This document shows, piece by piece, positions 28,186 to 46,864 of a DNA stretch of 64,000 nt. This stretch comes from an uncultured bacterium (GTDB taxonomy: Bacteria > Zixibacteria > MSB-5A5 > JAABVY01 > JAHJOQ01): the NCBI GenBank assembly GCA_965369655.1, contig CBDUQR010000001.1, forward strand, positions 78,070 to 142,069. Direction: 5' to 3'. Numbering within the stretch: position 1 is the first letter of the stretch; every line of letters starts with the position of its first letter. Under the pieces are notes generated by a model. The model was not told the origin of the DNA and made no database searches. It was given only the letters and a program-made list of their open reading frames with translations. Made by a program: the position numbers and the translations under genes.

Positions 28186-28186
28186 A

Positions 28187-28214: not shown

Positions 28215-28217
28215 TCA

Positions 28218-28964: not shown

Positions 28965-28973
28965 GAGGTCGTT

Positions 28974-29153
28974 ATGTTTCTCGGATTCCTTCTGGTCATT
29001 CTTGGCGCGATCTTCCTTCTCCGCAATATGGGTATCCTTCCATTCTGGTACGGCTGGAGCGAACTCTGGCCGGTCCTTCTGATAGCACTCGGACTCGCCA
29101 TGGTCGGCGACAGCATCTTCAAGAAATCGAAGAAGAAAAATAAGCCGGAATAA
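28974..29153 (+). CDS. LiaF/LiaI-like transmembrane micro-protein (59 aa; below the ORF-track cutoff)
   Basis: Manual translation gives MFLGFLLVILGAIFLLRNMGILPFWYGWSELWPVLLIALGLAMVGDSIFKKSKKKNKPE. A GGAGG lies 5 nt upstream. The two-helix hairpin with a Lys tail resembles the LiaI-LiaF TM region. Confidence 0.5.
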   Translation: MFLGFLLVILGAIFLLRNMGILPFWYGWSELWPVLLIALGLAMVGDSIFKKSKKKNKPE

Positions 29154-29230
29154 CCTATAGGTGGTGCGCTCAAGCTGTGATTGGGTTTGCATTCCTACGC
29201 CAAGGTGTGGACCGCAGGTATTTACGCGAG

Positions 29231-29806
29231 TTAGGCAATCATGGAACCAGACATGCACGTGTCAACAATCTCATGCCAGTCGCTGCATCGGACAAACCTA
29301 CCTTGCGCATTAATGGAATGGTTCCACGGTGCATCAAGAAGGCATGATATATCTGCGAAATCGGATGCTGCAATAACCTCTCTAAGATCATCGTCAATAA
29401 CAACTTCAGCCATAGGATATAGGTCAGATTTACTTGCTACTGTGGAATGGCTTTCATGCAAAGACATGAACGCATGAAAGTCAAGCCCATTGTCGCGAAG
29501 CCACTTCTTTGTTTTTGAGTGGAGAGATATTGGTCTGCTGGTAGCAACAACGATACGAAACTTCGTCGCAAGTTTTTCCAATCCCTCAGCAGCTCCTTCG
29601 ACCAATTGCATTTTCGAATAATCAAGTCGTTGAAATACCTTTTTGAAATCACTTTCTTTGACTCCTACAACCCTATCGATTTCGAACATCCGAATGTCGG
29701 TTCTGTTCAGATTGCAGTCATAAAGACTATTAATAACAGGGATTGCAGAACCTACAAGATCACAGATGACACCATCAACGTCTACCACTATGACTTTTCT
29801 ATCCAT
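29231..29806 (-). CDS. HAD-superfamily 5'(3')-deoxyribonucleotidase (NT5C family)-like protein
   Basis: HAD motif I VVDVDGVICD, which is the characteristic NT5C start. 191 aa. SD-like GGGGCTAGG upstream. Confidence 0.6.
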   Translation of the reverse strand: MDRKVIVVDVDGVICDLVGSAIPVINSLYDCNLNRTDIRMFEIDRVVGVKESDFKKVFQRLDYSKMQLVEGAAEGLEKLATKFRIVVATSRPISLHSKTKKWLRDNGLDFHAFMSLHESHSTVASKSDLYPMAEVVIDDDLREVIAASDFADISCLLDAPWNHSINAQGRFVRCSDWHEIVDTCMSGSMIA

Positions 29807-29823
29807 CGAACCTAGCCCCGTAT

Positions 29824-30465
29824 CTAATTGACGATGTACTTAATAACGAGCACTGAGACTATTGGTATTCCATAGAACAGGATGACCAGCCTTTTGGCTG
29901 CTGGCGGGTGAACGACTCTGCTTATGCTAGTAGTCAGGCCAAAGAGACCAAACCTCTTTCCTAAGTCCGACTCGTCGAACTTCAAGGCCTGCGCCACCGA
30001 ACCTAGGAGAAGTTGGTGATAATAGAAGTAGTCCATTACGAAGGCTATTGCCCATAGGATTAGTAGGAGGAAAAAGAAAATGAGAAAATGCTCCTCGTTA
30101 ATCTTCTCGGCCTTCTGTAAAGCCACGCTTGCCCCTACTAACGTTATGAAAGCTGTCAGGACAATGGACCGAAACCGTATAATCAGATCATTGAAGTGCA
30201 TTTGCGTCTCAATGATGGTTTTCCATTCTGTTTGGTAAAGCGGGATTACTGCCTTTTCCTGATCTGAAATATCCGGGACCGGATATGGCAACCTATTAAC
30301 CGGCGTATCCTTACCTTTACTCTTACCTTTGCCAACTACAATGCGATCAATTGTAATAACAATTGCGGTGTAAATGATTACAAGAAGAATAAGAACAGGT
30401 ATCGATATTGTCACAACCTTCTCCCTCAAAGTGATTGTGTTGTGTGCATCAGACAGACAACTCAA
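29824..30465 (-). CDS. four-TM membrane protein of unknown function (start codon uncertain)
   Basis: The track starts it at a TTG. An in-frame GTG at about 30420 has a GGGAGAAGG SD. Four hydrophobic helices and no known motif. It lies 17 bp upstream of the NT5C-like gene and is co-directional with it. Confidence 0.4.
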   Translation of the reverse strand: MSCLSDAHNTITLREKVVTISIPVLILLVIIYTAIVITIDRIVVGKGKSKGKDTPVNRLPYPVPDISDQEKAVIPLYQTEWKTIIETQMHFNDLIIRFRSIVLTAFITLVGASVALQKAEKINEEHFLIFFFLLLILWAIAFVMDYFYYHQLLLGSVAQALKFDESDLGKRFGLFGLTTSISRVVHPPAAKRLVILFYGIPIVSVLVIKYIVN

Positions 30466-30725
30466 ACAGTTTCGATCCGCACAAAGTCAGTCACGCGGTT
30501 GTTCCAGCCCGACTACTATTGATTCGCAACTTAATGTAAACTAATGCATTTCGAAGCACTAAGTCAATCACAAAACGCAATAGGGCCGGGTGCAATCATC
30601 CGGGGTGCTTTTTGAAAAATTCAAACTGATCGCCATACTACAGTCCAGTAGCCCAGTAGCGCCTCACTCCTGCGTAACAAATAGCAGGTGTCGAGGACAC
30701 CTGCTCTACAAGAACTGTGACAGAT

Positions 30726-30830
30726 ACTGAGATCGCCACGTCGCTCCGCTCCTCGCGATGACACCGCCCGCTCTCGGCGGTCGCAAGAACTGCCGGAACG
30801 GACGCTTTGGGAACAACCTCCTCCGTACCC
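30726..30830. repeat. degraded composite repeat copy (X module plus tetraloop hairpin plus decayed right terminus) upstream of pth
   Basis: gagatcgccacgtcgctccgctcctcgcgatgacacc (30726-30762), then cgctctcggcggtcgcaagaactgccggaacgg, then acgctttgggaacaacctcc, which resembles the cttttgggacagcctctcc terminus. Confidence 0.6.
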
Positions 30831-30898
30831 CATCGCGGAAAAGCATCGAATCTGCTTGACAATTACCGCGCCATTTGTATCATTGGCTGCCGTATCTG

Positions 30899-31462
30899 AT
30901 GATTAGACTCGTTGCTGGACTCGGGAATCCGGGAAAGAAATACATCAAGACCAGACACAACCTTGGTTTCATGGTTGTCGAACGGTTAGCTGACAAGTAC
31001 GAGTCCGGCTTCAGAAAGAAGAAAGGAGATTTCAGGCAGAGTTCAGTCGCAATCGGCAGTGGCAATGTCATTCTGATCAAGCCGACCACATTCATGAATC
31101 TCTCGGGAGTGGCGGTGAGGCAGGCGGCTGACTATCATGGATTTAGACCGTCGGAGATTCTGATCGTAAGCGATGACATCAATCTCCCCCTGGGAAAGAT
31201 AAGGATAAGGAGCGGTGGTTCCGACGGCGGGCATAAAGGCCTGAAATCAGTTATACAGGAGTTAGGATCAGAGGAGTTTCGTCGCGTACGTCTGGGGATT
31301 GGTCTGCCAGAAGAGATTGACGTCCCGGTAGATGCGTATGTCCTGGAGAAGTTCTCCGAAGACGAACAGAAGACCGTTGAAGAGATGATAAAAACTGCGG
31401 TTTCCGCTGTCGAGCAAATTATACAAGACGGCGTTGAGGCTGCACAGGTAACATTCAATTAA
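30899..31462 (+). CDS. pth: peptidyl-tRNA hydrolase
   Basis: MIRLVAGLGNPGKKYIKTRHNLGF is the canonical Pth N-terminus. Confidence 0.85.
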   Translation: MIRLVAGLGNPGKKYIKTRHNLGFMVVERLADKYESGFRKKKGDFRQSSVAIGSGNVILIKPTTFMNLSGVAVRQAADYHGFRPSEILIVSDDINLPLGKIRIRSGGSDGGHKGLKSVIQELGSEEFRRVRLGIGLPEEIDVPVDAYVLEKFSEDEQKTVEEMIKTAVSAVEQIIQDGVEAAQVTFN

Positions 31463-31512
31463 CCACCCTGCTTTCTCGACGCGAGAAGGCCGGAAGACCG
31501 GAGGGAGGTTTC

Positions 31513-31851
31513 ATGAAGCTCTACGAAACCGGCATTATTCTCAGTTCACTGCTCGAAGAATCCCAGATCACCCGTCAGACTGAGCAGATTCAGTCGCTCA
31601 TTACCGACAACGGCGGCAAGATTATTGACGTCGATCGCTGGGGAATGAGGAAGCTGGCCTATGAGATCAAGAAGATGCAGCAGGGATTCTATGTGTTCTT
31701 CCGCTACGAAGCCGACGGCAGCGTGCCACAGAAGCTGGAGAAAGCATTTCAGGTGAACGAGTCTGTGCTGAGGTTCCTGACGACAGTCCCTGACAAGGCC
31801 GAAGAAAGCCGGAAGCCAAGTGAAGAGACTTCGGAGGCGCCATCGTATTGA
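31513..31851 (+). CDS. rpsF: 30S ribosomal protein S6
   Basis: MKLYETGIILSSLLEE...DRWGMRKLAYEI. Confidence 0.9.
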   Translation: MKLYETGIILSSLLEESQITRQTEQIQSLITDNGGKIIDVDRWGMRKLAYEIKKMQQGFYVFFRYEADGSVPQKLEKAFQVNESVLRFLTTVPDKAEESRKPSEETSEAPSY

Positions 31852-31923
31852 TCCGTTTAGCCGCATGGCGCACATCGGCGTCTGCAGGGAAATTCAAATT
31901 CAAATATTGGGAGAGTCATAGTT

Positions 31924-32169
31924 GTGAAGCGTAGATCAATGGGATTCGATAATCGAAGAAAACGGCGTGGTCGGTTCGCCGATATCAAGCTCGGAATAAT
32001 CGACTATAAAGATGACAAGCTCTTAAGGAAGTTCATCACCGAGAATGGCAAGATTATCCCGCGCAGAGTCACCGGGGTGTCGGCCAAGACACAGCGGAAA
32101 CTCTGTCGTGCGATAAAGCGAGCGCGGATGATGGCGCTACTGCCGTTTGTCGAGGAGGCATACAGGTAG
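31924..32169 (+). CDS. rpsR: 30S ribosomal protein S18
   Basis: [41 protein letters not shown]. The start is a GTG with a GGGAGAG SD. An ATG at 31939 is the alternative start. Confidence 0.85.
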
Positions 32170-32176
32170 GGAAAGG

Positions 32177-33139
32177 ATGCCCTCGTTGCGAACGAAGCTG
32201 AGTTTAGCTGCGGTCGGCATGGTGGCGTCGTACAATGCACTCTGCTGGCTACCTGCAAGTATCTGGGCGTTCGCCATTGCATCTTCCACCGGCCTTGTAT
32301 TTCTCCTTGCTGTGCGCCCGCTCAGGTATGGCGCCGCTCTGATGATCGCATCGATGATCGTCGGAGTATTGACAGCGAGGATGCTGCCCGATGGTTACAC
32401 ATATTACTTTGTGGGATTTACACTCATGCTCGTCGCACTCCCGAGCGCAATCATGGCTGCCGGTATCAGAAACGGGATATCGGCTCACAGGACTCAACTT
32501 TGGGCGCTTCTTCCAATCTCGATCCTGCTGTTCCTGTATGTCATGAATGTGTATGGCGCTGCAACTCTCTGGAGGGAAGTGATCGATGGGATGAGTATGA
32601 ATACCGTCGAGTGGTACAGTGAGGCGATAAACTCTATGCCTGGGACCATTTCAGCCGAGGAAGCCGAGCGATTGAAAGGACTTGTTACAGACTTGTTCAA
32701 TTTCCTGTACAGGTTCACGCCGGGACTGCTCATAACCCTGGCGGCAGCGGTCAATATTGCGTCATACTTCTTCGCAGGTAAGATGATTCGCGTCGAGGGA
32801 GGATTCTATAGACGAATGATGGGATTCGGACTATGGAAAGCAGGCGTCATTCACATGGCGCTTCTGGCAGTCGGGATCGTAACGTGGATGACGCGGATCG
32901 AAGCGATAATACCGCTCTCGGAGAATCTGCTGTTCCTGCTCGGCATCGTATATATGGTGGCGGGTTTTTCGGTCATCGACCACTATTTGAAGAAATACAG
33001 AATACATGCTGCACTCCGGACGGCATTTGTAGTAGCACTGATCCTGTCGGGCTGGTTCGGAGGACTGCTGGCCGCCATAGTCGGCCTGGTCGATTCTCAT
33101 TTCGACTTCAGGCGCGTGCGGGCGCAGCAGATCGGATGA
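32177..33139 (+). CDS. DUF2232-like polytopic membrane protein (YybS-like) in the conserved rpsR-rplI gap
   Basis: Eight to nine TM helices. It occupies the rpsR to rplI interval, as DUF2232/YybS proteins do in many genomes. The track ORF starts at 32147 and would overlap rpsR. Confidence 0.45.
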   Translation: MPSLRTKLSLAAVGMVASYNALCWLPASIWAFAIASSTGLVFLLAVRPLRYGAALMIASMIVGVLTARMLPDGYTYYFVGFTLMLVALPSAIMAAGIRNGISAHRTQLWALLPISILLFLYVMNVYGAATLWREVIDGMSMNTVEWYSEAINSMPGTISAEEAERLKGLVTDLFNFLYRFTPGLLITLAAAVNIASYFFAGKMIRVEGGFYRRMMGFGLWKAGVIHMALLAVGIVTWMTRIEAIIPLSENLLFLLGIVYMVAGFSVIDHYLKKYRIHAALRTAFVVALILSGWFGGLLAAIVGLVDSHFDFRRVRAQQIG

Positions 33140-33194
33140 AATATCCCTTTGCTATGAACAACAAGAGTGCGTACATATAGAGAGGTGAATTCAG

Positions 33195-33641
33195 ATGAAA
33201 GTGATTTTGAGAGAAGATATGGATAATCTCGGCAAATGCGGGGATATCATAGAGGTCAAGAACGGGTTCGGGCGGAACTACCTGCTGCCTCGCAACCTGG
33301 CCATTCCGGCGACTAAGGGAAACCTGAAGTCTATAGGCGAGGTCACGGCGCAGAAAGAGCTCCGTGATAAGAAATACCGCAGGGAAGCCGAAAGAATCAA
33401 AGATCGCATCGAGAGAATCTCCTGTACCGCCGAGGTCAATGTTGGCGAAGAGGATAAGATGTTCGGATCGATAACGTCGGCCATCATCGTCGGTTTGCTC
33501 AAAGAGGAAGGCGTCGAGATCGATCGTCGCAAGATCATGCTCGATGAACCGATCAAGAACCTGGGAGTCTACACAATTCCGGTGAAGATAGCTCCGGATG
33601 TTGTCGCTAATCTCAAACTCTGGGTGGTCAAGAAGAGTTGA
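33195..33641 (+). CDS. rplI: 50S ribosomal protein L9
   Basis: MKVILREDMDNLGKCGDIIEVKNGFGRNYLLPRNLA. Confidence 0.9.
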   Translation: MKVILREDMDNLGKCGDIIEVKNGFGRNYLLPRNLAIPATKGNLKSIGEVTAQKELRDKKYRREAERIKDRIERISCTAEVNVGEEDKMFGSITSAIIVGLLKEEGVEIDRRKIMLDEPIKNLGVYTIPVKIAPDVVANLKLWVVKKS

Positions 33642-34150
33642 CGTCGGACAACGAAGAAAAAGTCGATTTGGTGGAAGTGAGCGTTAACGGGCTTGCTCTG
33701 GATGTCACCACCAACTCGCCGGTCGTGTTGCTCGGACCTGTGAATTCCGAGAAGGTCTTGCCGATCTGGATCGGCCACTATGAAGCGTGGGCGATTGCCA
33801 TGGAGATGTCAGGCATGCCGTCAAAGAGACCTATGACGCACGACCTTCTCAGGACGGTGATAGAAGGTCTAAAGGCAGAGGTCGTCAGGGTTGAGATATT
33901 CGATCTCAAGGATCAGACATTCTACGCGCGGGTTATCTTAAGAAATAACGGGAACGAACTCGATATCGATGCGCGGCCTTCGGATTCGATAGCCCTTGCG
34001 CTCAAGGCAAAGGCTCCAATCTTCGCCAACCCCAAGTTGTTCGACCTGAAGCAGCCTCCTTCGGACAGCAAGCAAGCTGCAGATCCGCAGGAACTCAAGG
34101 ATCGCCTGAAAAGGATCAATCCAGAGGACTTCGGCAAGTACTCCCTCTGA
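33638..34150 (+). CDS. bifunctional nuclease (DUF151/BFN) domain protein
   Basis: VVLLGPV...LPIWIGHYEAWAIA...HDLL...FYARV is the DUF151 pattern. The start is a TTG overlapping the rplI stop. Confidence 0.65.
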   Translation: MTSDNEEKVDLVEVSVNGLALDVTTNSPVVLLGPVNSEKVLPIWIGHYEAWAIAMEMSGMPSKRPMTHDLLRTVIEGLKAEVVRVEIFDLKDQTFYARVILRNNGNELDIDARPSDSIALALKAKAPIFANPKLFDLKQPPSDSKQAADPQELKDRLKRINPEDFGKYSL

Positions 34151-35934
34151 TGGATTTCATCGTGTGCAAGGTACGGAGTCAGACAGTCACCATTCTGATG
34201 GCATTGTTCGCACTGATTGCAGCCGGTACGCCGGTCTCACTTGGCTTGGACCTCCCGGCTCAGATTGAGCATGCCGAATCGCTGTTTCGCTCCGGAGACT
34301 ACGGCAAGGCAGCAGAGGTATTCGCCGAGATCGCTGCTCTCAGCCCGAGTTACGAGGGACTTCCCGCGCTGCTTCTGAAAGAAGCAAGAGCCAGATATTA
34401 CGCCCGGCAATATGCCAGGTCCGAAAATGTCCTCCAGCGCTTGATATCAGAATTCAGAGATTCTCCATATGTTTCCTCCAGTTACTATTTCCTTGCCAGG
34501 ATCGATTTCGACAGATCCGACTACCGGCGAGCGACGGCGAACTTCGTCTCGGCCCATCATTATGCGTCGGGCAGAAGGCTGAAAGATATTTGCCGGGCAA
34601 ATGTTGTCAATATGCTGGTCGGCTATCTCTCGTATGCGGAGCAGAAATCAATTCTGTCGGCGTGCCACCGACTCGACAAGAGACTGTTCAGCAGCGCAAT
34701 ATATGATGCCTCGATGAGATTCAGCGAACTCGGTCTGGATACGCAGGCCGAAAGGATGCTTGACATCTACGCCGCATTCGAGCGGGATGGTGATCCGCGA
34801 TTCGAAACGCTCCGGAATGAACTGCGGTCAGGATTGCCGCGCTCGATCGACATAGCGCTGCTATTCCCCCTTTCCGGCGAACTTGCAGCTTACGGGAGAC
34901 AGATGAATTCAGCCGTTGAGCTGGCTGTCGAGGCATACGACGATGTGACAATCAATTTGAAGACGTACGATACGTTCGGTAACTCGATAGTCGCAGCGCA
35001 GCTTGCGCAGCGAGCCACAGCCGAGGGTGTGTCGGTCGTGCTCGGTCCGCTGACCTCGCAGGAGGCTGTCGGAGCCGTACCGTATTCCGACTTCTGGTCC
35101 GTCCCGATGGTCCTTCCTGTCGCGTCCGAAAAAGGTCTGACATCCATATCGAAGATGACATATCAGCTCTCGCCCACTCCTGAGGCCATGGGAGAAAGAC
35201 TCGCGGAGGCAGCCATAGAGGAACTCGGACTCGATTCCGTCGCGATTCTCGCTCCGAATGACGGCTACGGCAGACAGATGACGGATGGTTTCAAGCGAGT
35301 GATGAAGAAGAATCAAGTAGATATCTTTAGTGAAGTCTACTATCCGCGCGGCGCGACCGACTACCGGAGATTCATGCTGGACCTGAAGAAGACAGTGTTG
35401 CCGGATACTTTCGACCCCAGGATCTTCCTCGATGAGGAGGGTGATACACTTGAACTCGAAGAGATCGATGTTCAGATACCGGCAATCTTTATTCCCGCTT
35501 TTGCTGAAGAACTGCGTTACATTATCCCGCAATTGCGCTTCTATCGCATTGGGTCAATCCTTCTCGGAGGCGAGGACCTCGGGAACGATGAAGTTCTGTC
35601 GCTGAAAGCTACTAAACTTTTCCCATCGATGTTCGTGTCGCACACGACTTTCACGCCATCTGACACGGCATGGATCAAGTTCGAGTATCTGTTCAGACAA
35701 AAGAACGGCCGAGAACCCACTTCCGTTGCCGGCATGACGTACGACGCAGTCTGCATGACGCTCGAAGCCGCTGCGCTCGGCGGGTTCACTGCCGACGGAA
35801 TCGTGCGCGGCTGGGAGCGGCTCGGTCGCTACGATGGCGTTACCGGTCCGTTTGAATTCAATGATCAGCGCGAGAATGTGGCGGCGCCGGTCTATTTCCT
35901 GCTTGATGGACAGATCGAGAAATGGCTGCACTGA
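34150..35934 (+). CDS. TPR-like plus periplasmic ligand-binding (type-1 PBP, LivK/LpoA-like) protein
   Basis: Signal/TM, a TPR-like helical N-terminal half, and a C-terminal DIALLFPLSGELAAYGRQMNSAVELAVE...VVLGPLTSQEA typical of Peripla_BP_6. Confidence 0.55.
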   Translation: MDFIVCKVRSQTVTILMALFALIAAGTPVSLGLDLPAQIEHAESLFRSGDYGKAAEVFAEIAALSPSYEGLPALLLKEARARYYARQYARSENVLQRLISEFRDSPYVSSSYYFLARIDFDRSDYRRATANFVSAHHYASGRRLKDICRANVVNMLVGYLSYAEQKSILSACHRLDKRLFSSAIYDASMRFSELGLDTQAERMLDIYAAFERDGDPRFETLRNELRSGLPRSIDIALLFPLSGELAAYGRQMNSAVELAVEAYDDVTINLKTYDTFGNSIVAAQLAQRATAEGVSVVLGPLTSQEAVGAVPYSDFWSVPMVLPVASEKGLTSISKMTYQLSPTPEAMGERLAEAAIEELGLDSVAILAPNDGYGRQMTDGFKRVMKKNQVDIFSEVYYPRGATDYRRFMLDLKKTVLPDTFDPRIFLDEEGDTLELEEIDVQIPAIFIPAFAEELRYIIPQLRFYRIGSILLGGEDLGNDEVLSLKATKLFPSMFVSHTTFTPSDTAWIKFEYLFRQKNGREPTSVAGMTYDAVCMTLEAAALGGFTADGIVRGWERLGRYDGVTGPFEFNDQRENVAAPVYFLLDGQIEKWLH

Positions 35935-36767
35935 CCGCCGACCTTCGGCGCAAATATGATTCCCTGATCGAATTGATCTCCACTCTCGAAAGGGTGGTAG
36001 TCGCCTTCTCCGGAGGACTCGATTCCGCATTCGTCCTGTACGCATCGCTTCAATCGCTCGGATCGGACAATGTGCTGGCGGTGACAGGCGATTCACCGAG
36101 TCTCGCACGATTCGAGAAAGAGTGCGCTGCGCGATTTATGCGCTCGCTCAATATTCGCAAACGTCACCTGATTATCGACACCAACGAGATGCAGGATGAA
36201 GGCTATATAGCTAATACAATCGATCGCTGTTTCTACTGCAAGAATGAGCTATATTCGAAACTCGTCGGTATAGCGAATCAGGAGGGGTTCAGTTGTGTGG
36301 TCGATGGCTGTAACGCCTCTGACATCGGCGATCACAGACCTGGAAGACGGGCTGCCGAGAAATTCTCGGTGAGAAGTCCGTTACTTGAAGTCGGACTGCA
36401 TAAACCCGAGATCAGAGAGATCGCCCGGCATGAGGGTCTCGAAATATGGGACAAGCCCCAGACCGCCTGCCTCGCATCAAGAATTCCATACGGAGAGATT
36501 GTGACAGCCGATAAACTATCGATGATCGAAAAAGCTGAGGCGTTTCTCCGTGAGAACGGTTTCCGCCAGTTGCGGGTGCGCCACCACGGCAAATTAGCCA
36601 GAATCGAGCTTGAAGAGCAGGGCTTTGAGTTGATGACCGATGCTGCAATCAGGAAACGCATCGTCGATCGATTCAGAGATATTGGATTTACGTGGATATC
36701 CGTTGATCTCAAGCCCTTTGAAACAGGAAGCATGAACATCTCAATAAAGGACTCAGAGAGTGACTGA
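35922..36767 (+). CDS. PP-loop ATP pyrophosphatase, TIGR00268/LarE-like
   Basis: VVAFSGGLDSAFVLYAS (SGGxDS PP-loop), then ...TACLASRIPYGE...RVRHHGKLARIE. Confidence 0.7.
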   Translation: MAALTADLRRKYDSLIELISTLERVVVAFSGGLDSAFVLYASLQSLGSDNVLAVTGDSPSLARFEKECAARFMRSLNIRKRHLIIDTNEMQDEGYIANTIDRCFYCKNELYSKLVGIANQEGFSCVVDGCNASDIGDHRPGRRAAEKFSVRSPLLEVGLHKPEIREIARHEGLEIWDKPQTACLASRIPYGEIVTADKLSMIEKAEAFLRENGFRQLRVRHHGKLARIELEEQGFELMTDAAIRKRIVDRFRDIGFTWISVDLKPFETGSMNISIKDSESD

Positions 36768-37002
36768 CAATGAAAAGGAGAAGCGCGTCGCGCTGAAGAT
36801 GGTTATTGACGGCGAAATCCGCGAGATTTCGTTCGAAGAGCTGGCTCTCTCGAACAACATGGCTCAGGAGGCGCTCGTCAGACTGATGGTGCGTAAGAAA
36901 ATAATCGAACCGCGCGAATTCATGGAGGAGATGAACGCCGTCCAGAAAGAAAGGTACCGTTCAGGCGACCCGTCTGACGAAGGCCAGACCCCCAACGCGT
37001 GA
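36760..37002 (+). CDS. small hypothetical protein
   Basis: 81 aa with no recognisable motif. It overlaps the PP-loop gene by 8 nt. Confidence 0.3.
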   Translation: MTDNEKEKRVALKMVIDGEIREISFEELALSNNMAQEALVRLMVRKKIIEPREFMEEMNAVQKERYRSGDPSDEGQTPNA

Positions 37003-37071
37003 ACCAGACGACGAATATGATCAGACCAGGAGAGGGAATGTTGAAGGAATCATTTCGGACACATACCTGCG

Positions 37072-37179
37072 GGATCGTCATCACGAGGAGCGGTAGCGAC
37101 GTGGCGATCTCAGGCTCCAGTACTGTGGGTGGCAGACGTCCTTGCAGAGTCCTGAGCCTCGAAGAGTCTGCCCCATTTT
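37072..37179. repeat. dispersed repeat modules X and Y (copy D)
   Basis: 37072-37112 is the reverse complement of the 30726-30762 module (gagatcgccacgtcgc...cgatgac). 37113-37179 (ggctccag...ggcagacg...agtcctgagcctcgaagagtctgccccatttt) parallels 22561-22652. Confidence 0.7.
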
Positions 37180-37183
37180 CGCT

Positions 37184-37419
37184 TGCATCGGCAGATGTCC
37201 AGAGGCTGTCCCCAAAGTGCCACTCAACTTGAGCGGAAAGCTGACCCTGTCGCTCCCGCGAAGGCGGGAGCCTATTTAACGATTACCCATTCAATAGATT
37301 CCCGTAATATCCTGAGCACAGCGAAGGGCCTGTGCGGGAATGACCTCGCTTTCTTTCGCAAGCATGAACACCAACCTATCAGACCTTTTGGGACAGCCTC
37401 TCCACATCTGCCGATGCAC
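37184..37419. repeat. 34-bp-class palindrome (tgcatcggcagatgt-cc / cc-acatctgccgatgcac) interrupted at its centre
   Basis: The left half lies at 37184-37200 and the right half at 37402-37419. The halves are reverse complements of each other. The central dinucleotide cc is present on both sides of the insert. Confidence 0.75.
37201..37401. mobile_element. MITE-like 201-bp insert with perfect 12-bp terminal inverted repeats (agaggctgtccc ... gggacagcctct)
   Basis: The insert sits exactly between the duplicated cc of the palindrome. It has internal GC hairpins (ctcccgc-gaag-gcgggag) and no ORF. Confidence 0.6.
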
Positions 37420-37517
37420 AGAATTCGGTAATGTTTAGTGTGGGGCAACTCGCCTTTTTCAATCTGCAGCAACAGATGATTTGACAGGTCATTGATGGTC
37501 TGTATATTGATGACCTT

Positions 37518-39719
37518 ATGGCGCCACTGATCGACAGGATGCGGACGGAACTGAACGATAGGCAGTTTGAAGCCGCAACTACGGTAGATGGTCCGCTTCT
37601 TATCCTTGCCGGAGCCGGTTCTGGCAAGACGCGGGTTCTGACCTATCGTGCCGCTTATCTTGTGTCCGACCGTGCCGTATCTCCCTTCAATATCCTGGCC
37701 GTGACTTTTACGAACAAAGCTGCCAGCGAGATGAAAGAACGGATGGAGACGCTTGTCGGTCAGGCGGTGAGAGATATGCAGGTGTCAACCTTTCATTCGT
37801 TCTGTGTCAGGATACTCCGGCGATACGGCGACAGGTGCGGGCTTCCTCGCGATTTCTCGATATACGATCAGGAAGATTCCCTGAATCTGATACGGCACTG
37901 CATGGAGGATCTGCTCATATCGCCGAAGTCGCATCCACCGAAAGTGATCCGTGAGTTTATTTCATCCGCAAAGGACAAACTGATAGGACCCGATCAGTAC
38001 GCCGAATCAGCGAAGGCGTATTTCAACAAGGTAGTGGCCAATGTATATGAATCGTATCAACGGCGGTTGGAAGTTGCCGCTGCGCTCGATTTCGACGATC
38101 TGCTCTGCAAGGCGGTCAGATTGCTTCTGGATCATCCGGAACTGCTCGAACAGATGCAGAATAGCTACAGATATATCATGGTCGATGAGTATCAGGACAC
38201 GAATCATGTGCAGTATCTGCTCGTGAAAAACCTCGCAGCACGCGACCGGAATATTTGCGTGGTCGGCGATGACGATCAGTCGATATACGGATGGCGCGGC
38301 GCGGAGATCAGAAACATCCTCGAATTCGAAAAGGACTTTCCGGGTTGCAGCGTGGTCAAGCTCGAACAAAACTACAGATCGACTAAGACCATACTCAAGG
38401 CTGCATCTAGCGTCGTCGGGAACAACCAATCCCGGAAATCGAAGACTTTGTTTTCCGAGGGTGACGAGGGCGACAAGATCACTCTGCTGGTTGCAGACAA
38501 TGATCGCGGCGAAGCGGAGATGGTCGCCGACAAGATCGAAGGATTAATCTCTGCTGATCGATTCGGTCGCAGGGAGATAGCGATTCTCTACAGGACTAAC
38601 GCGCAGTCCCGCGCACTCGAAGAGACGCTCAAGAACCGTTTCATACCTTACACGATTGTCGGCGGGCTGAGATTCTACCAGCGCAAAGAAATCAAGGATG
38701 TGATGGCGTATCTCAAGGTGATGACCAACCCTCACGATCTGATTTCACTCAGGCGCATAGTCAACACGCCCCCACGCGGTCTCGGCAAAGTTGCGCTCGC
38801 GAAAATCGAGAACATAGCGGTCAAAAAGAAGGTCGGGCCGATTCAATTGATACTGGATGACGACGATTATCTGTTCCTGCCAGGCAGGGCGAGAACCGGC
38901 TTGCGCCAGTTTGCAGTTATTCTGAGAACTCTCGTGACCGCAAAGGACGAAAAGGATCCAGTCGAATTGGTGAAGACTGTCATAGAGCATAGTGAAATAC
39001 TGCGCGAGATCGACAATGGTGACGCCATTGAAGCAGAATCGCGGCGAGAAAACCTTGATGAACTGGTGGCGGCGGTCGATGAATTCTGCCAGCGCAACGA
39101 GGATGCGACTATCGAATCGTTCCTCGAAGAGGTATCGCTCTACACCGACATAGACCAGTGGGACAACTCCATCGATTCCGTTACGCTGATGACGCTGCAT
39201 TCCGCCAAGGGACTCGAATTCCCCGCTGTATTCATCACCGGACTCGAGGAAGGTCTGTTTCCATTGGCGAAGTCGCTCGAAAGCGATGCGGAACTCGAGG
39301 AGGAGCGCAGGCTTTTCTATGTCGGCATTACCCGCGCCGAGAAGCTGCTGTTTATCGCGCACGCGAAAACGCGTCGGCGGTTCGGCGACATGCTCACGCT
39401 CGAATCGCGTTTCATATCGGAGCTGCCCGCCGATGTCGTCGAGATTGAGGAGAAGCTCTACACGCCTCGCGCTGTGTCGCATCGTTCATACCTGTCCAGC
39501 GAATCAAAGGTGACATCGTTCGATTCGGACACGGTTGATCCTGACGATACATACAGCTATCTGGAGGTCGGTCGATGGGTCACGCATCCAACCTGGGGAG
39601 ACGGCAGGATTATCGCACGGCGCGGTACATCAGACTCGACCGAGATCGACGTCATGTTTGAATATGTAGGCCGCAAGAAACTACTCGCCCAATATGCGAA
39701 CTTGCAGGTGAAAGAGTAA
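37518..39719 (+). CDS. UvrD/PcrA-family ATP-dependent DNA helicase
   Basis: LLILAGAGSGKTRVLTYRAAYL (motif I), DEYQDTN (motif II), VGDDDQSIYGWRGA, LEQNYRS. The C-terminus carries an extra domain of about 70 aa. Confidence 0.9.
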   Translation: MAPLIDRMRTELNDRQFEAATTVDGPLLILAGAGSGKTRVLTYRAAYLVSDRAVSPFNILAVTFTNKAASEMKERMETLVGQAVRDMQVSTFHSFCVRILRRYGDRCGLPRDFSIYDQEDSLNLIRHCMEDLLISPKSHPPKVIREFISSAKDKLIGPDQYAESAKAYFNKVVANVYESYQRRLEVAAALDFDDLLCKAVRLLLDHPELLEQMQNSYRYIMVDEYQDTNHVQYLLVKNLAARDRNICVVGDDDQSIYGWRGAEIRNILEFEKDFPGCSVVKLEQNYRSTKTILKAASSVVGNNQSRKSKTLFSEGDEGDKITLLVADNDRGEAEMVADKIEGLISADRFGRREIAILYRTNAQSRALEETLKNRFIPYTIVGGLRFYQRKEIKDVMAYLKVMTNPHDLISLRRIVNTPPRGLGKVALAKIENIAVKKKVGPIQLILDDDDYLFLPGRARTGLRQFAVILRTLVTAKDEKDPVELVKTVIEHSEILREIDNGDAIEAESRRENLDELVAAVDEFCQRNEDATIESFLEEVSLYTDIDQWDNSIDSVTLMTLHSAKGLEFPAVFITGLEEGLFPLAKSLESDAELEEERRLFYVGITRAEKLLFIAHAKTRRRFGDMLTLESRFISELPADVVEIEEKLYTPRAVSHRSYLSSESKVTSFDSDTVDPDDTYSYLEVGRWVTHPTWGDGRIIARRGTSDSTEIDVMFEYVGRKKLLAQYANLQVKE

Positions 39720-40125
39720 TTGGCAAGGACCACTGTGCGTCCAGAGAAGATACAGTGAATAGGCATACAAGATCGGCGAAGGTGATATCCCGTTCAGTTT
39801 GGAGAGAGAACACTCTCGGCAATGCTCAGAGGATATTCGGATTGGTTGAATCCAAACCCTTTAGCTCGGCCAGATCAGGATGAACCCTATACCTCAGCAC
39901 GCCGTCAATTGCAGTGGTATGTTCTGCTACAGCTTTGTATTCAGTTATCAATCGATCAAGAGCTGAAGGAACTCGCATCGTCCGTTCGACGATTGAACAT
40001 CCTTTCCTCGGCGACATCCACACGATTTCCTCCCGGTACCTCCCCTGCGAAGGAGAAACACATGGATAACGGTAATCATCTCCCAATGGAACCCAACGAG
40101 GTCGTACCGTGGGTGGCAGATGTCC

Positions 40126-40326
40126 AGAGGTTGTCCCATAAGGTAGTTTCGACGGGTCTTGGCGACGACGGAGTCGTCGGTGTGACCTGACGATCTTCTG
40201 TAAGCTGTTGCCAGGCATTGCTTCCATTTTCCGGCAGTTCATCGGTCGCTGATCCCGATCCCTGAGGGACACGTCCGCCTTCGGCGGACGCAAGAACAGC
40301 CGGAATGGATGCTTTTGGGACAGCCT
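40126..40326. mobile_element. MITE-like 201-bp insert (copy A) inside the palindrome ggcagatgt-cc/cc-acatctgcc
   Basis: The termini are agaggttgtccc ... gggacagcctct, flanked by ggcagatgtcc (40115-40125) and ccacatctgcc (40327-40337). The length is identical to copy D, but the internal sequence differs. Confidence 0.6.
40146..40200. repeat. 55-bp segment shared with 56249-56303 (two mismatches)
   Basis: gtttcgacgggtcttggcgacgacggagtcgtcggtgtgacctgacgatcttctg. It contains the hairpin cgacgac-gga-gtcgtcg. Confidence 0.75.
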
Positions 40327-40400
40327 CTCCACATCTGCCAAAATTGTCAATCCGAATTCGATTCAGAGCATGGAATTCAATTGGTCTGTCTCGGAAGGTG

Positions 40401-41219
40401 TTATTCACTGTAAGCTGTAGCATCGTAGTGATTATAATGGTCTTGATTTACCAGCTTGGATTTCTTAAGTAACTGAAAAAGCCCGAACTTCTCAACATAA
40501 GCCTTCAATTCTCTGTAGTTAGGTGTAAGGCAATAATAGAATATCATGTATTTCTCATCATCAGAAATCTGCGCTCTAACGAGAGTTGCGTAGAACTCCT
40601 TGTCGACAATGCTACTCCGATCAACAAACCACAATAGATGATAAAGGGTCTTGAAGTAATTGGATATGTCAAGCGGAAACCCACTCGAGAATTGGTTATG
40701 AGCTATCTCCAGAAGTTTCGTATCATCTGAGATTGAGGGTCCCATTTTTCGTACTGTATCATCATATTTCCATCGAAAACGACTGTACCATTTGTTGAAA
40801 CAAGCCTTTCCTTTCAAGCCCTCACTTCGATCCTCCAAATTCCGAACCAACTCATTAAACAAATCCATCAATTGAAAAAAAGTGTTCTCGAACTGCTGAA
40901 GACTAAGGGTTCTATTCTGCAACTGCATTTGCTCTCTTTGACCCTGAATCTCATTTCGTGTTAGCTTGAGTTCTTTCCGCTGCAAATGTAGATCTTGTCT
41001 CTGTAGATATATGGCGTAAATGAAGCCAGCAAATGCAAGTGCGGTGAAGAGCGCATTCGCTGCACCAAACATGTCCCCGAACTGGCCTCTATACGGCCAA
41101 TCTTCGGGCATAAAATGAATAACTGCCACCCAGTTGCTGAGCCAGATTAGGATTGCTACGACAAGCAATAGTGGTAGCAGCCACCTCTTTTCATTCTTCA
41201 ACTCATCCTGGCTATCCAT
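40401..41219 (-). CDS. N-terminal two-TM-helix membrane protein with coiled-coil and C-terminal globular domain (Abi-like architecture)
   Basis: Two N-terminal hydrophobic helices (WLLPLLLVVAILIWLSNWVAVIHF and FGAANALFTALAFAGFIYAIYL), a Gln/Leu-rich coiled coil, and a C-terminal domain of about 170 aa. Hand counts over 40441-40560 give about 34% G+C, against 52-60% in neighbouring genes. Confidence 0.45.
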   Translation of the reverse strand: MDSQDELKNEKRWLLPLLLVVAILIWLSNWVAVIHFMPEDWPYRGQFGDMFGAANALFTALAFAGFIYAIYLQRQDLHLQRKELKLTRNEIQGQREQMQLQNRTLSLQQFENTFFQLMDLFNELVRNLEDRSEGLKGKACFNKWYSRFRWKYDDTVRKMGPSISDDTKLLEIAHNQFSSGFPLDISNYFKTLYHLLWFVDRSSIVDKEFYATLVRAQISDDEKYMIFYYCLTPNYRELKAYVEKFGLFQLLKKSKLVNQDHYNHYDATAYSE

Positions 41220-41259
41220 GACAATCTCCTATCCAGTATTGAAGTCTTTTGCTGTGAGC

Positions 41260-41279
41260 GGCAGATGTGGACATCTGCC
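41260..41279. repeat. solo (uninterrupted) copy of the palindrome ggcagatgt-gg-acatctgcc
   Basis: It is the reverse complement of the empty form of the sites at 37190-37412 and 40115-40337. It lies in the 76-bp gap between two minus-strand genes. Confidence 0.75.
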
Positions 41280-41295
41280 GTGCACAGGGCAGAAT

Positions 41296-43326
41296 CTATC
41301 TACCTGCGGCGGATGTATCAGGCCACTCGCAATCATAGCCGACGCCCATCTCGACTTCGACCGGATGTTCCGTGTTGGTGCCATACTGCCGCCAGAGCTT
41401 GTTGTTGCTGGTGAAGTCATATTTTACAGGATATGTATCGTCTCCGCCAGTGTCGAGGAACAATCCGAGACACATGATATGATCGCGCAGTCCACCCCTC
41501 TTCCCTGCAACATTTGATCTGCCGAGTGTCGTAGCTGCGGTGACTCGATATATGTCGTCGCCCGACTTGTCCCAGAAAATACCGATGCCGTTCGCATTGC
41601 CACCACCGAGAGAGAGATTCGGCGCGTCATAGACGTCGTTGCCCTCGCAATCGATCAGTGTGCCGAGCGTAAAATCATGCCCCGCACCCTGCGCCATATT
41701 TTTAGTCGCCGTATAATGATCGTCGCCGGTGCTGTCGATCAGGATGCCGAGTCCGAAATGCGCGCCCGATCCCTGGACATACCACACACCGCGGTACTCG
41801 TCGTCGCCCTTGTCATCGGCGAGGATTCCAATCGCGTACCAGTAGGCGCATCCCTGTGCAAACAACCCTGCGGAATACTTGTCGTTTCCTTCGGCATCGA
41901 CCAGCATCCCGATGCCTCCGGCCCAGGAGTGCCCGTCGATGTAGTCGCCCCGTTTGCCAAATCCGACACCCTGCGCGAGATTCGAGTTGTAGTCTTTCGT
42001 CTGCGAGGCTGGGAACACGATATCAAGCGTGTCGGCATGGTAATCGTCGTCACCCTTCATATCGATCAGCATCCCCATGCCTTTCGTGAATCCGAATCCC
42101 TGCCCAAGCAGATACATATGGTAAGAATCATTGCCATCAAGGTCCGAGAGGATTCCGATACCGAATTGTCCCGCACCCTGCGCGCAGATGAACCCATCGT
42201 ACGAATCTGTCCCTGCCTTGTCGAGCAATGCGCCGACGCCGAAAAGCCCGACACCACCGGTCATATTGCGGCCGGAGTATATGTCGTTGCCATCGACATC
42301 CACAAGAAACGCATATCCGAACAGACCTGCGCCAAACGATGGTATCCCCTCACCGCTCGACTCGTATGTGTCGTCGCCACCCAGATCGATCAGGATCGAT
42401 ATCCAGTTCTCGATCGATCTGTTGGCGCCACCGCCTTCGTAGCAGTCATCGCCGCCAACATCGATTATGAGATAATACTCGTCGTCAGGGTAGTTCTGAT
42501 CGGACCCATCGTTAATGACAATCCTTCCGAGCGGTGTATCGTACTCGAAGGAGAAACTGTCGTCGAACGTCACCGCCGCGAGCGAATCTGCGGCATAATC
42601 GACAGCGCGCGCAAGATCCTGAACATGGGTATAGAGATATTTGAAATCAACAAGCGACGCGAACTCCTCGAGCGTGAAATCGATAATATCATCATCCGAA
42701 GCGAGCAGCAACTGCGCCCTGCCGTACATCTCAGAGAGATCATACTTCTCGGCAGCCTTCTCGAACGCTCGCGCGTGGTAGTGCAGGGAATCGACAGATG
42801 CGTAGATCAGGAGCGCGGCAATTAGCTGCAATTCATCAGGCAGGGTCGATACGCTTTGTTCGAGTGACACGATTTCATCTTCGGAAAGCGATCCGTTTCC
42901 TGTCGATTCAATCAGTCTCTCGATAGCGTTTGCGAGCGCGTATTGCTCAGCGATCAATGGATAGATTTCTTTCAGCGGATCCCCGATCAGGCCGCGTCGC
43001 ACGCTTTCATCGAGTCTGCTCGACGCGAATCCGATCAGGTTCTGCAGCCGACCCGCGTTGCGCTTGACGCTTGCTTTGTAGATGTTCGTGTAATGTTCGA
43101 TCTTGAAGAAGTCAGAGTGCAGCGTGTAGAACAGCGGCAGCACGAACCTGTCGCCGCCGTAGTTGGCCATGTCGCCGTAATCAAATGTCATCGACTCCCG
43201 CGTAAGCCCGACTTCAGAGAGAGCCTCCTCGAATGGATCGATGGACGCCTCATTCGTTTCGTCTCCAGCGAAAAGAGCCGCACTCAGAATCAGCAGTATC
43301 GGCGCGAGTATTCTAAGACTGAACAT
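41296..43326 (-). CDS. secreted Gly-rich repeat protein (about 12 copies of h-L-h-D-x-x-G-[ND]-D-x-Y, period about 23 aa; predicted beta-solenoid)
   Basis: Signal peptide MFSLRILAPILLILSAALFA. An alpha-helical N-terminal third, then repeats LIIDVGGDDCY, ILIDLGGDDTY, FLVDVDGNDIY, ALLDKAGTDSY, ILSDLDGNDSY, MLIDMKGDDDY, MLVDAEGNDKY, ILADDKGDDEY, ILIDSTGDDHY, TLIDCEGNDVY, IFWDKSGDDIY and LFLDTGGDDTY, each preceded by a GxGxxGxG stretch. Confidence 0.55.
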   Translation of the reverse strand: MFSLRILAPILLILSAALFAGDETNEASIDPFEEALSEVGLTRESMTFDYGDMANYGGDRFVLPLFYTLHSDFFKIEHYTNIYKASVKRNAGRLQNLIGFASSRLDESVRRGLIGDPLKEIYPLIAEQYALANAIERLIESTGNGSLSEDEIVSLEQSVSTLPDELQLIAALLIYASVDSLHYHARAFEKAAEKYDLSEMYGRAQLLLASDDDIIDFTLEEFASLVDFKYLYTHVQDLARAVDYAADSLAAVTFDDSFSFEYDTPLGRIVINDGSDQNYPDDEYYLIIDVGGDDCYEGGGANRSIENWISILIDLGGDDTYESSGEGIPSFGAGLFGYAFLVDVDGNDIYSGRNMTGGVGLFGVGALLDKAGTDSYDGFICAQGAGQFGIGILSDLDGNDSYHMYLLGQGFGFTKGMGMLIDMKGDDDYHADTLDIVFPASQTKDYNSNLAQGVGFGKRGDYIDGHSWAGGIGMLVDAEGNDKYSAGLFAQGCAYWYAIGILADDKGDDEYRGVWYVQGSGAHFGLGILIDSTGDDHYTATKNMAQGAGHDFTLGTLIDCEGNDVYDAPNLSLGGGNANGIGIFWDKSGDDIYRVTAATTLGRSNVAGKRGGLRDHIMCLGLFLDTGGDDTYPVKYDFTSNNKLWRQYGTNTEHPVEVEMGVGYDCEWPDTSAAGR

Positions 43327-43444
43327 ATTCCCTCCCGTTGTTGCGAATAGCAGACTCTACTCAACGGGATCGCCGAAGTCAAGCATTAACTCCGATTCCG
43401 ATCCTGAAAGGCTTGCCAAATAAGTCCGAAACCATCAAAGCATT

Positions 43445-43536
43445 GTCATCGCGAGGAGCGAAAGCTACGTGGCGATCTCATTGTTTATAAAATCGCAAAA
43501 ACACTGAGATTGCCACGCTTCGCTCGCAATGACGAC
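43445..43536. repeat. inverted pair of the X repeat module about 120-210 bp upstream of glnA
   Basis: gtcatcgcgaggagcgaaagctacgtggcgatctca (43445-43480) and tgagattgccacgcttcgctcgcaatgacgac (43505-43536) form an imperfect 32-bp inverted repeat around a 24-bp AT-rich spacer. The same module occurs at 30726-30762 and 37072-37112. Confidence 0.65.
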
Positions 43537-43655
43537 AACAAGGTTATCTTTACAAGCTCTGAACAAACATATCTCTTATCGACCTGACATTTTCGCTTGC
43601 CGAAAACCGAGATTTGTTTATATTAGTTTGATAATAATTTCACAAGGAGACCATT

Positions 43656-45190: not shown

Positions 45191-46864
45191 ATGTTCAGAG
45201 TCTTTTTCGCTATTTCCCTGGCATCGCTCACGATTCTCGTGAGTTGCAGTGGCGAAAATGAAACGCCGACTGTGACTGATACGATACCGCCACATGTGGT
45301 CTCGACAATTCCTCTTGCTGACGCTGATTCGGTTAGTATCAATACGGTGATTTCAGCAACATTCTCGGAGAATATCAATCCTGCTACGATTGACTCTACA
45401 ACTTTCATACTCGATATAACGCAGTCAGGAGAGCAAATCTCAAGTACAATAGACGTCGATGAACACACCGTCACTCTTGCTCCTTCAACTACGCTTATGT
45501 ATGACACTTCGTACACAGCCAGGCTGGTGAGTGGTATCACAGACATGGCAGGTAACGCGCTTCATGATGAATACTCCTGGTCATTTCGGACTTGCGATAG
45601 CAGTATGATTGATACGATACCGCCACATGTGGTCTCGACAATTCCTCTTGCTGACGCTGATTCGGTTAGTATCAATACGGTGATTTCAGCAACATTCTCG
45701 GAGAATATCAATCCTGCTACGATTGACTCTACAACTTTCATACTCGATATAACGCAGTCAGGAGAGCAAATCTCAGGTACAATAGACGTCGATGAACACA
45801 CCGTCACTCTTGCCCCTTCAACTACGCTTATGTATGACACTTCATACACCGCCAGACTTATGAGCCAAATCACAGACACAGCAGGCAACGAACTCCGTAG
45901 TGAATACTCCTGGTCATTCAACACAATTGGACGTAGCTCACCCGACACTGGCTGGTCACTCCGTGCCTCGGGTACCTCAGTCTACCTTACCGATGTTGTT
46001 TGGACCGGTGATGGGTTCATCGCTGTGGGAATAACCAGCACGGTGGTCACTTCTAGTGACGGGATTTCATGGCGGGCTTCACAAATCAGCGTTGAAGACA
46101 ATTACCTTGCCTCAATAGCTCATTGTGGAGACGCACTAATGATAGTAGGTTGGCATCAGCAATCATATCAACCTCGCACGTTTGTTTCCACTGATGGGAT
46201 ATCTTGGATTCCTGCTATCTCGTTCAGCGACAGTTCGAAAACTCTAATAGACGTAGCCCATACAGGAACACACTACATCGCTGTAGGAGGTTGGGGTGTC
46301 GCAATGGAATCACCCGATGGATTGCACTGGACAAGAATCATAGATCTCTGGGATGTGAGCGCCTTCAAAGCTGCATTGTGGCATGACAGCAAGCTATTCG
46401 CTGTAGGATATACACGCGATTACGATGATGACCTTTACCCATCTCCATACAGATCGGTCGTTTATACGTATGATCTGTTCACATGGTCGGAAGTGTGGAG
46501 ATCTGGCGACCTTCCATGTGACACTTGGCTTAACGATATTATACACACTGGAGATATGTTCATCGCAGTTGGTTTTGGTTCGACAGAGTACGGGGGTGGT
46601 TCAATAATCACCTCAACTGATGGTACGGCTTGGAAGTATCGCTATCCAGGTCAACACACATGCCACTATAGTGAAGTCATCCACGTAAGTGGTGTTACCT
46701 ATGTAGCCGGAAGCCAAGGAGTTGTGTTAAGAACTGATGATTTTACATCCTGGGAAGTCTGTCAGACGAATACAGACGAACATCTGAACGCAATAGCCTA
46801 TGGAAACTCTACAATAGTAGTTGTGGGGTCCAATGGTACTATCCTCACTTCACCATTGAGATGA
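45191..46864 (+). CDS. lipoprotein with two tandem Ig-like (Big/SbsA-type) domains and a C-terminal BNR/Ycf48-like beta-propeller region
   Basis: Lipobox LTILVSC. Two repeats of about 111 aa (DTIPPHVVSTIPLADADSVSINTVISATFSENINPATIDSTTFILDITQSGEQIS...). The C-terminal half has recurring S-x-D-G-x-x-W units. Confidence 0.6.
   Translation: MFRVFFAISLASLTILVSCSGENETPTVTDTIPPHVVSTIPLADADSVSINTVISATFSENINPATIDSTTFILDITQSGEQISSTIDVDEHTVTLAPSTTLMYDTSYTARLVSGITDMAGNALHDEYSWSFRTCDSSMIDTIPPHVVSTIPLADADSVSINTVISATFSENINPATIDSTTFILDITQSGEQISGTIDVDEHTVTLAPSTTLMYDTSYTARLMSQITDTAGNELRSEYSWSFNTIGRSSPDTGWSLRASGTSVYLTDVVWTGDGFIAVGITSTVVTSSDGISWRASQISVEDNYLASIAHCGDALMIVGWHQQSYQPRTFVSTDGISWIPAISFSDSSKTLIDVAHTGTHYIAVGGWGVAMESPDGLHWTRIIDLWDVSAFKAALWHDSKLFAVGYTRDYDDDLYPSPYRSVVYTYDLFTWSEVWRSGDLPCDTWLNDIIHTGDMFIAVGFGSTEYGGGSIITSTDGTAWKYRYPGQHTCHYSEVIHVSGVTYVAGSQGVVLRTDDFTSWEVCQTNTDEHLNAIAYGNSTIVVVGSNGTILTSPLR
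45278..45943 (+). repeat. tandem duplication, 2 x 333 bp, within the lipoprotein gene (first 176 bp of each unit identical)
   Basis: The units at 45278-45610 and 45611-45943 were compared base by base. The first difference appears at offset 176 (a/g), and divergence increases towards the 3' end of each unit. Confidence 0.85.

Follow-up and report, generated by a model that had tools for sequence, protein, structure and literature searches.

The 64-kb stretch of DNA analysed here (the window) carries one short palindrome unbroken at one place and split by an insert at three others, which raises the question of what these inserts are and how they came to lie at its exact centre. The three units are very probably MITEs, that is, short non-coding derivatives or mimics of an IS1182-family element, in which the ends alone are kept and which have inserted into the loop of a REP-like palindrome. 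An earlier note on this DNA had proposed a non-autonomous element with terminal inverted repeats, a short duplication and specificity for the centre of the palindrome, present at filled sites and missing from an empty one, and all of these points hold on the larger sequence set described below.

Three filled sites and one empty site in the window

The features of the window that bear on the question are given by position, with no strand assigned to any of them.

22670-22680: left arm GGCAGATGT (22670-22678) and left GG (22679-22680)
22681-22837: probable MITE of 157 bp, with ends AGAGGTAGTCTCAAAAG and CTTTTGGGACAGCCTCT
22838-22854: right GG, right arm ACATCTGCC (22840-22848) and head GAGCAC, which is GTGCTC on the other strand (22849-22854)
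about 30727-30833: remnant, the right-hand part of a MITE of the 40-kb family, which ends CTTTGGGAACAACCTCC and has eroded flanks
37190-37200: left arm GGCAGATGT (37190-37198) and left CC (37199-37200)
37201-37401: probable MITE of 201 bp, with perfect 12-bp terminal repeats
37402-37412: right CC and right arm ACATCTGCC (37404-37412)
40109-40125: head GTGGGT (40109-40114), left arm GGCAGATGT (40115-40123) and left CC
40126-40328: probable MITE of 203 bp
40329-40339: right CC and right arm ACATCTGCC (40331-40339)
41254-41285: empty target, GGCAGATGT-GG-ACATCTGCC at 41260-41279, with GTGAGC and GTGCAC flanking
about 56229-56414: decayed relative of the 40-kb MITE family, its interior 84% and 74% identical in two blocks

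The arm GGCAGATGT and its complement occur exactly eight times in the window, as four pairs, and the palindrome GGCAGATGT-NN-ACATCTGCC is filled at three of these sites (22670-22848, 37190-37412 and 40115-40339) and empty at the fourth. The three split palindromes and the unbroken copy were thus found where the earlier note had placed them, with the site at 41260-41279 indeed empty. The unbroken sequence, GGCAGATGTGGACATCTGCC, is the sole match in the window at three or fewer mismatches, with 0.01 expected, and lies within a 76-bp gap that separates two minus-strand genes. All four sites are intergenic with ordinary chromosomal genes on either side, and their gene neighbours comprise an HD-domain phosphohydrolase, holA, an ECF sigma factor, a PP-loop ATPase, UvrD/PcrA and an AbiC-like protein.

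Each insert begins two bases past the left arm and stops two bases short of the right arm, and the dinucleotides on its two sides are GG/GG at 22 kb, CC/CC at 37 kb and CC/CC at 40 kb. At the 37-kb site, the arm is in addition prolonged outward as TGCATC / GATGCA. Inverted repeats of about 17 bp, AGAGGYTGTCYCAAAAG and CTTTTGGGACAGCCTCT, form the ends of the inserts, with no mismatch in the 37-kb copy, one in the 40-kb copy and three in the 22-kb copy, the same counts as had been reported before, and the ends AGAGGYTGTCYCAAAAG and CTTTTGRGACARCCTCT are present in all three copies of the window and in the units of other loci. As for the limits of the inserts, the coordinates given earlier for the 37-kb copy (37201-37401, 201 bp, with CC on both sides) were correct, but those for the other two needed correction: the 40-kb insert, given as 40126-40326 (201 bp), runs to 40328 and has 203 bp, and the 22-kb insert, given as 22681-22846 (166 bp), stops at 22837 and has 157 bp. 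Two ORFs overlap the 40-kb MITE, one of 122 aa on the plus strand (39822-40190) and one of 115 aa on the minus strand (40076-40423), and both are called as genes on a nearly identical metagenome contig (L001, see below); neither gave a match in Pfam, and the calls are probably artefacts of the repeat.

Related loci, the central dinucleotide and the form of the target

Related loci, numbered here from L001, were collected from public genomes and metagenomes. When one genome of each species was scanned for GGGACAGCCTCTNNACATCTGCC, 39 loci were obtained, mostly from about 10 MAGs labelled Zixibacteria and in three cases from MAGs labelled Ignavibacteriales or Ignavibacterium, and a scan of JGI metagenomes for GGCAGATGTNNAGAGGYTGTCYC gave at least 120, the combined set amounting to at least 159 related loci that are mostly from Zixibacteria MAGs. 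No match was found in viral contigs scanned for the right junction and for the junction of abutted ends, GGGACAGCCTCTNNAGAGGYTGTCYC.

Two of the sequences compared with the window were L001, an ENA metagenome contig with 99.8% identity over 16 kb, and L020, from a Zixibacteria MAG, which is syntenic with 19675-24361 of the window at 77-81% identity, so that the DNA of the window derives from a relative of this MAG. The comparison of near-identical strains for the presence or absence of single inserts, which had been proposed earlier, was run on L001 alone; its filled and empty states were identical to those of the window, and no polymorphic site was seen. At the orthologous palindrome between a 139-aa ORF and holA, L020 carries a 177-bp member of the 37-kb family and the window the 157-bp element, with GG/GG in both and the same right flank. 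This pair is best read as independent use of one conserved target. A separate difference between the strains concerns a 333-bp tandem duplication (45273-45905, two copies 93% identical) within the glutamine synthetase gene of the window or immediately downstream of it; L001 appears to be one copy short, so that the copy number looks polymorphic.

The duplication of the central dinucleotide was evaluated in a set of units whose ends were located independently of the flanks and in which both palindrome arms had at most one mismatch, giving 65 short units of 84-333 bp from the window and the loci listed. The same dinucleotide was present on both sides in 58 of the 65. When the right-hand dinucleotides were shuffled among the units in 10,000 trials, 26 were matched on average and 40 at most, and the duplication that the earlier note had seen in the window thus holds well above the level of the shuffles. 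The matched pairs include AG/AG, TC/TC, CT/CT and CG/CG, and because non-palindromic dinucleotides are matched, the repeat is a direct one and a simple long inverted repeat is excluded. The sequence is T-NN-A at both junctions, where the target is itself palindromic, and a duplication of 2, 3 or 4 bp therefore fits equally; each informative variant site needs one mutation under either model of the duplication length.

The earlier note had known the site at 41260 as the one empty copy; 26 unbroken palindromes were found in the sequence set as a whole, and their architecture is that of the filled sites. A head, GTGnnC, adjoins a single arm in 22 of the 26 empty sites and in 54 of 64 filled ones. 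Among the empty sites with a one-sided head, the central dinucleotide was CC in 9 of 10 with the head on the left and GG in 11 of 12 with the head on the right (20 of 22 together), and among the filled, duplicated sites with a one-sided head it was CC in 20 of 23 and GG in 24 of 25, respectively (44 of 48 together). Because the same pairing of head and dinucleotide is found in both classes, a filled site is an empty site plus an insert. The pairing also means that GG or CC tells the orientation of the palindrome, as given by the side of its GTGnnC head, and not that of the insert, contrary to the earlier view that the GG flanks of the 22-kb copy placed it on the opposite strand. Arm variants with compensatory changes on both sides, such as GGCACATGT/ACATGTGCC and GGCACTTGT/ACAAGTGCC, were also observed. 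The target palindrome thus has an orientation and is REP-like: it is short, extragenic and multi-copy, and its head is conserved on one side, as is expected of a REP.

A second, variant palindrome was noticed just upstream of the 37-kb and 22-kb MITEs, at 37125-37174 and 22580-22649. It has the head GTGGGT or GTGGAC and the arm GGCAGACGT or GGCAGACGA, followed by CC, and a 17-bp motif, AGTCCTGAGYYTCGAAG, lies once or twice at its centre, without flanking duplication. This motif is present in the window at these two places only, and the one further match, in two related loci, differs at three positions and appears not to be related.

The interiors of the MITEs, clustered across the window and the loci listed, fall into at least 10 families with no similarity from one family to another. 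The interior of the 40-kb MITE belongs to the largest family, with at least 12 members across loci, and that of the 37-kb MITE to one with abundant copies in the Zixibacteria MAG Dive96_bin4.201 (L020, L030, L034, L036 and L040), whereas the 22-kb interior had no cluster partner at the threshold used, although an unpaired end in L027 is similar to its 3' part. The observation that interiors are unrelated between copies therefore stands within the window but not beyond it, since the 37-kb and 40-kb interiors recur as families in other genomes. After the copies had been oriented, CC and GG were both present within MITE families, and the elements have thus inserted in both orientations relative to the palindrome; a strict orientation bias was rejected on this ground. 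In the copy at about 56229-56414 the termini and the palindrome arms are both eroded, and this, together with the eroded state of the remnant at 30727-30833, is the pattern expected of unselected old copies.

Some other small repeats accompany these interiors. A dispersed repeat, GTCATCGCGAGGAGCG..GCGACGTGGCGATCTC, is found at 37074-37112, 43442-43545 and 30727-30760, and at 43.4 kb it forms an inverted-repeat element of about 100 bp; the module recurs within the interiors of MITEs at other loci, and L011 has a similar sequence. Another small element, with the ends GGCRTGTTGAAAAA...TTTTTCAACAY, is found in L040 (2186-2518) and L035 (3658-3989), nested within the GGATTCCCGC...GCGGGAATGAC hairpin of a MITE interior and with a direct repeat of about 8-10 bp (CCCGCGCAGG) on either side, and it represents a second hairpin-associated MITE family of the Dive96 MAG. 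In L006 (5640-6090), a tandem array of about seven 65-bp units carries the hairpin GGATTCCCGCCTRCGCGGGAATGAC in each unit, which is found also within the interior family of the 37-kb MITE; the array is not a CRISPR, as its 'spacers' are identical.

IS1182-family elements with the same ends and other readings of the units

No cognate transposase is encoded in the window, as had been noted before: a tblastn search with the IS1182-family transposase described here gave no match across the 64 kb. The transposase gene flanked by the same termini, which the earlier note had expected elsewhere, was found in elements of 1.5-1.66 kb that carry an IS1182-family gene and occupy the same target. In L063, the ends lie 1554 bp apart, in the arrangement cctgtgccc-GGCAGATGT-CC-AGAGGTTGTCCCAAAAG ... 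CTTTTGGGACAGCCTCT-CC-ACATCTGCC-gggcacagg, and enclose one ORF only, of 473 aa, which scored 383 bits against the NCBIfam model NF033551 (IS1182 family transposase; cut-off 270) and matched DUF772, DDE_Tnp_1_6 and DDE_Tnp_1 in Pfam. The partner element is thus an IS1182-family DDE insertion sequence. A tblastn search with its transposase gave at least nine genes over the loci listed, and the full-length copies (L063, L065, L084, L113, L132, L133, L134, L136 and L154; 1497-1663 bp) share the ends of the MITEs and their target palindrome. IS1182 elements measure about 1.3-2 kb (ISfinder range), and the partner elements, with a single ORF and terminal inverted repeats in 1497-1663 bp, fit this layout.

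The eight transposase ORFs that were extracted are all intact (460-507 aa) and comprise seven distinct sequences, those of L113 and L133 being the same. They belong to at least five lineages, the others being about 50-55% identical to the L063 protein, and have in common the blocks ALDGTK, DGGYYSG and VE.VFGN.KFNLGF, with conserved acidic residues, as sequence motifs only, within ALDGTK, DGGYYSG and VE.VFGN. The dinucleotides matched in three of the eight full-length copies with both flanks readable, and the palindrome head is present on both sides in L133 and L113. We read the mismatched flanks as presumed recombination between 1.5-kb copies or short-read misassembly. MITEs and full-length elements have only the terminal approximately 17 bp in common.

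On these grounds, the units of the window are short, carry no transposase coding sequence, have terminal inverted repeats and a duplication, have an autonomous partner and show evidence of mobility in the form of empty sites and a reused site, which are the features by which a MITE is recognised. The MITE ends would be bound by a DDE transposase that a full-length copy, at another place in the genome or in the population, provides in trans, and this enzyme would integrate the element into the loop of the REP-like palindrome (GTGnnC)-GGCAGATGT-NN-ACATCTGCC. Strand transfer would take place on both strands, staggered around the central dinucleotide, and gap repair would then duplicate NN, that is, at least 2 bp and at most the 4-bp T-NN-A. 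Insertion would be possible in either orientation with respect to the palindrome, and the copies would then remain in place and decay. We infer that the MITEs are mobilised in trans, and the enzyme would recognise its target in hairpin or cruciform form and not as a duplex, with transposition following a cut-and-paste or a copy-and-paste mode.

The REP-like design of the palindrome, with its short GTGnnC head on one side of the hairpin, allows a different reading, in which the units are REPIN-like doublets that are moved whole by a REP-associated tyrosine (Y1/HUH) transposase, the arms being mobile and not the target. One locus is suggestive in this respect. On the minus strand of L008 (1290-1637), about 100 bp from a unit, there is a partial Y1/HUH ORF (RAYT or IS200-like) with the motifs NHLHLL and YIHENPVRAG, and it is followed by hairpins with the tail G(N)(N)CAC-GAAAC, which is similar to the head side of the target, although the palindrome is not the same. 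A tblastn search with this ORF, however, gave no other locus among the 40 loci and no match in the window, the Y1-like gene being confined to 1 of these 41 sequences. The inner termini of the units are moreover those of a DDE element, and the duplication is consistent here, unlike in Y1 transposition, which is not known to make target-site duplications (IS200/IS605 and RAYTs). The RAYT/REPIN system was therefore rejected as the mover of the units, which it is most unlikely to be, with no counterpart of the L008 ORF in the other 40 sequences and the duplication unexplained. Spread of the empty palindrome itself may well be due to a RAYT, and this would not conflict with insertion of MITEs into it; the L008 ORF and hairpin tail are a possible clue to that spread.

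It could also be considered that the whole arm-insert-arm unit is one structured RNA gene or regulatory hairpin, with no insertion event at all, as the unit folds as a very stable long hairpin (-58 kcal/mol, z = -7.8, DNA parameters) and many of the deviations of the left end from a perfect repeat are C-to-T changes that keep G-U pairing on one strand. The strength of the fold is a consequence of the inverted repeats. Against an RNA gene, there are at least 10 unrelated interior families, empty sites exist, a transposase gene is flanked by the same ends and the copies of the window decay through many substitutions; nor does an RNA structure require a 2x2 'mismatch' with the same dinucleotide on both strands. 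The earlier note had held that a covariance-model match spanning flank, insert and flank would speak for such a gene, and the Rfam search of the window gave none: no match reached the gathering threshold in the whole window, and at E ≤ 1 the sole match over 22400-41500 was inside the UvrD/PcrA helicase gene, with none over the units. That match (39270-39369, RF03531; 37 bits, gathering score 65) most likely represents conserved coding sequence and not an sRNA. A structured RNA is accordingly a highly improbable account of the units.

At 157-203 bp, the units are about as long as a bridge RNA, and a 2-bp core at both ends would look alike at any single site, but mini-elements of the bridge-RNA-guided IS110/IS1111 type or of a serine recombinase, with the dinucleotide as a donor/target crossover core, have very little probability, because several dinucleotides (GG, CC, AG, TC, CT, CA, AA and CG) occur in a single genome and MITE family and are still matched where a fixed core is predicted, the elements with these exact termini encode an IS1182-family DDE transposase and not a DEDD or serine enzyme, and the interiors are unrelated between families. 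The IS110 family contains the best-known REP-targeting insertion sequences (PMC1525189); membership in IS110/IS1111 was rejected nonetheless, the partner being a DDE element and the flanking dinucleotide variable. IS30-, IS630- and IS110-like candidates, which had been considered for their 2-bp duplications or REP targets, were dropped with the identification of the partner as IS1182 family. Mimicry of an element end by a palindrome arm was also rejected, as local alignment was no better than with shuffled arms (p approximately 0.3-0.4).

Known systems and the significance of the elements

The interpretation of the units as MITEs of an IS1182-family element agrees with what is known of this family. 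IS1272 and TnSha1, IS1182-family elements of staphylococci, insert into hairpins (PMC4923244, PMC5678879), and Siguier et al (2015), as cited in the same two papers, state that some IS1182 members target palindromes. The elements described here resemble IS1272 and TnSha1 in transposase family (NCBIfam), in terminal inverted repeats of about 16 bp and in hairpin or inverted-repeat targets that are often downstream of genes (PMC4923244, PMC5678879). IS1272, however, is hardly selective for primary sequence, and it removes part of the hairpin and leaves no target duplication, whereas in the present case insertion is at the exact centre of one specific palindrome, both of whose arms are retained while the dinucleotide of the loop is duplicated. 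A published model predicts that the loop alone is duplicated when its 5' side is attacked by the ends (PMC5678879, Fig 13, pathway c), and the duplication found here matches this hypothetical pathway.

Other elements are similar in part. IS1397 and ISKpn1 make a 3-4-bp duplication and have the ends TG...CA. These IS3-family elements of enterobacteria are likewise DDE elements that insert strictly into a REP palindrome of the host (PMC1525189), but their transposase is of a family other than IS1182, and no large MITE radiation was found reported for them in the literature covered. IS621, ISPpu9, ISPpu10 and ISPa11, of the IS110 family, are similar in their highly selective insertion into REPs (PMC1525189, PMC12288879). 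The IS110-family elements use a DEDD recombinase, are site-specific with a fixed core and usually lack terminal inverted repeats, in contrast to the DDE enzyme, clear inverted repeats and variable duplicated dinucleotide of the present elements. Correia (NEMIS) elements are short and non-coding, with terminal inverted repeats, a 2-bp duplication, many intergenic copies and long hairpins; it is TA that Correia elements duplicate, and a palindromic target is not required. The units here are like them in each of the former respects (for the class, PMC3184786) and differ in having a defined 20-bp palindrome as target and several unrelated interiors that share one end pair.

The earlier note regarded the pairing of a host palindrome with a nested MITE as a feature that is not commonly annotated, which overstates its novelty: REP palindromes are targeted by insertion sequences of five families, namely IS3, IS110, IS4, IS256 and IS5 (PMC1525189), and targeting of palindromes by IS1182 members has been reported (PMC4923244, PMC5678879). 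A REP-targeting DDE insertion sequence with MITEs is thus of a kind already known, and its variant features are the strict sequence specificity and the exact duplication of the loop. No description of this IS1182 clade or of its MITEs was found in open-access text, and a search of open-access full text for the sequences of the element ends matched only unrelated primers.

These results reveal neither a new class of mobile element nor a new mechanism, but they document a large, multi-family MITE radiation together with its parent insertion sequence in Zixibacteria and neighbouring lineages. The elements explain many contig breaks and spurious ORF calls in MAGs of Zixibacteria and their neighbours, and they provide a clean natural data set on target choice in the IS1182 family, which complements the hairpin deletion by IS1272. 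It is conceivable, although we hold it only tentatively, that a deep clade of the IS1182 family has remained faithful to a single exact target, the loop of one particular 20-bp REP hairpin, cut with a 2-nt stagger, across Zixibacteria MAGs and some MAGs labelled Ignavibacteriales. If this is true, these would be naturally site-specific DDE transposases that have spread together with a REP 'safe harbour', and they would represent a loop-duplicating counterpart of the hairpin-deleting IS1272 and a tractable system for examining how a DDE enzyme reads a hairpin or cruciform.
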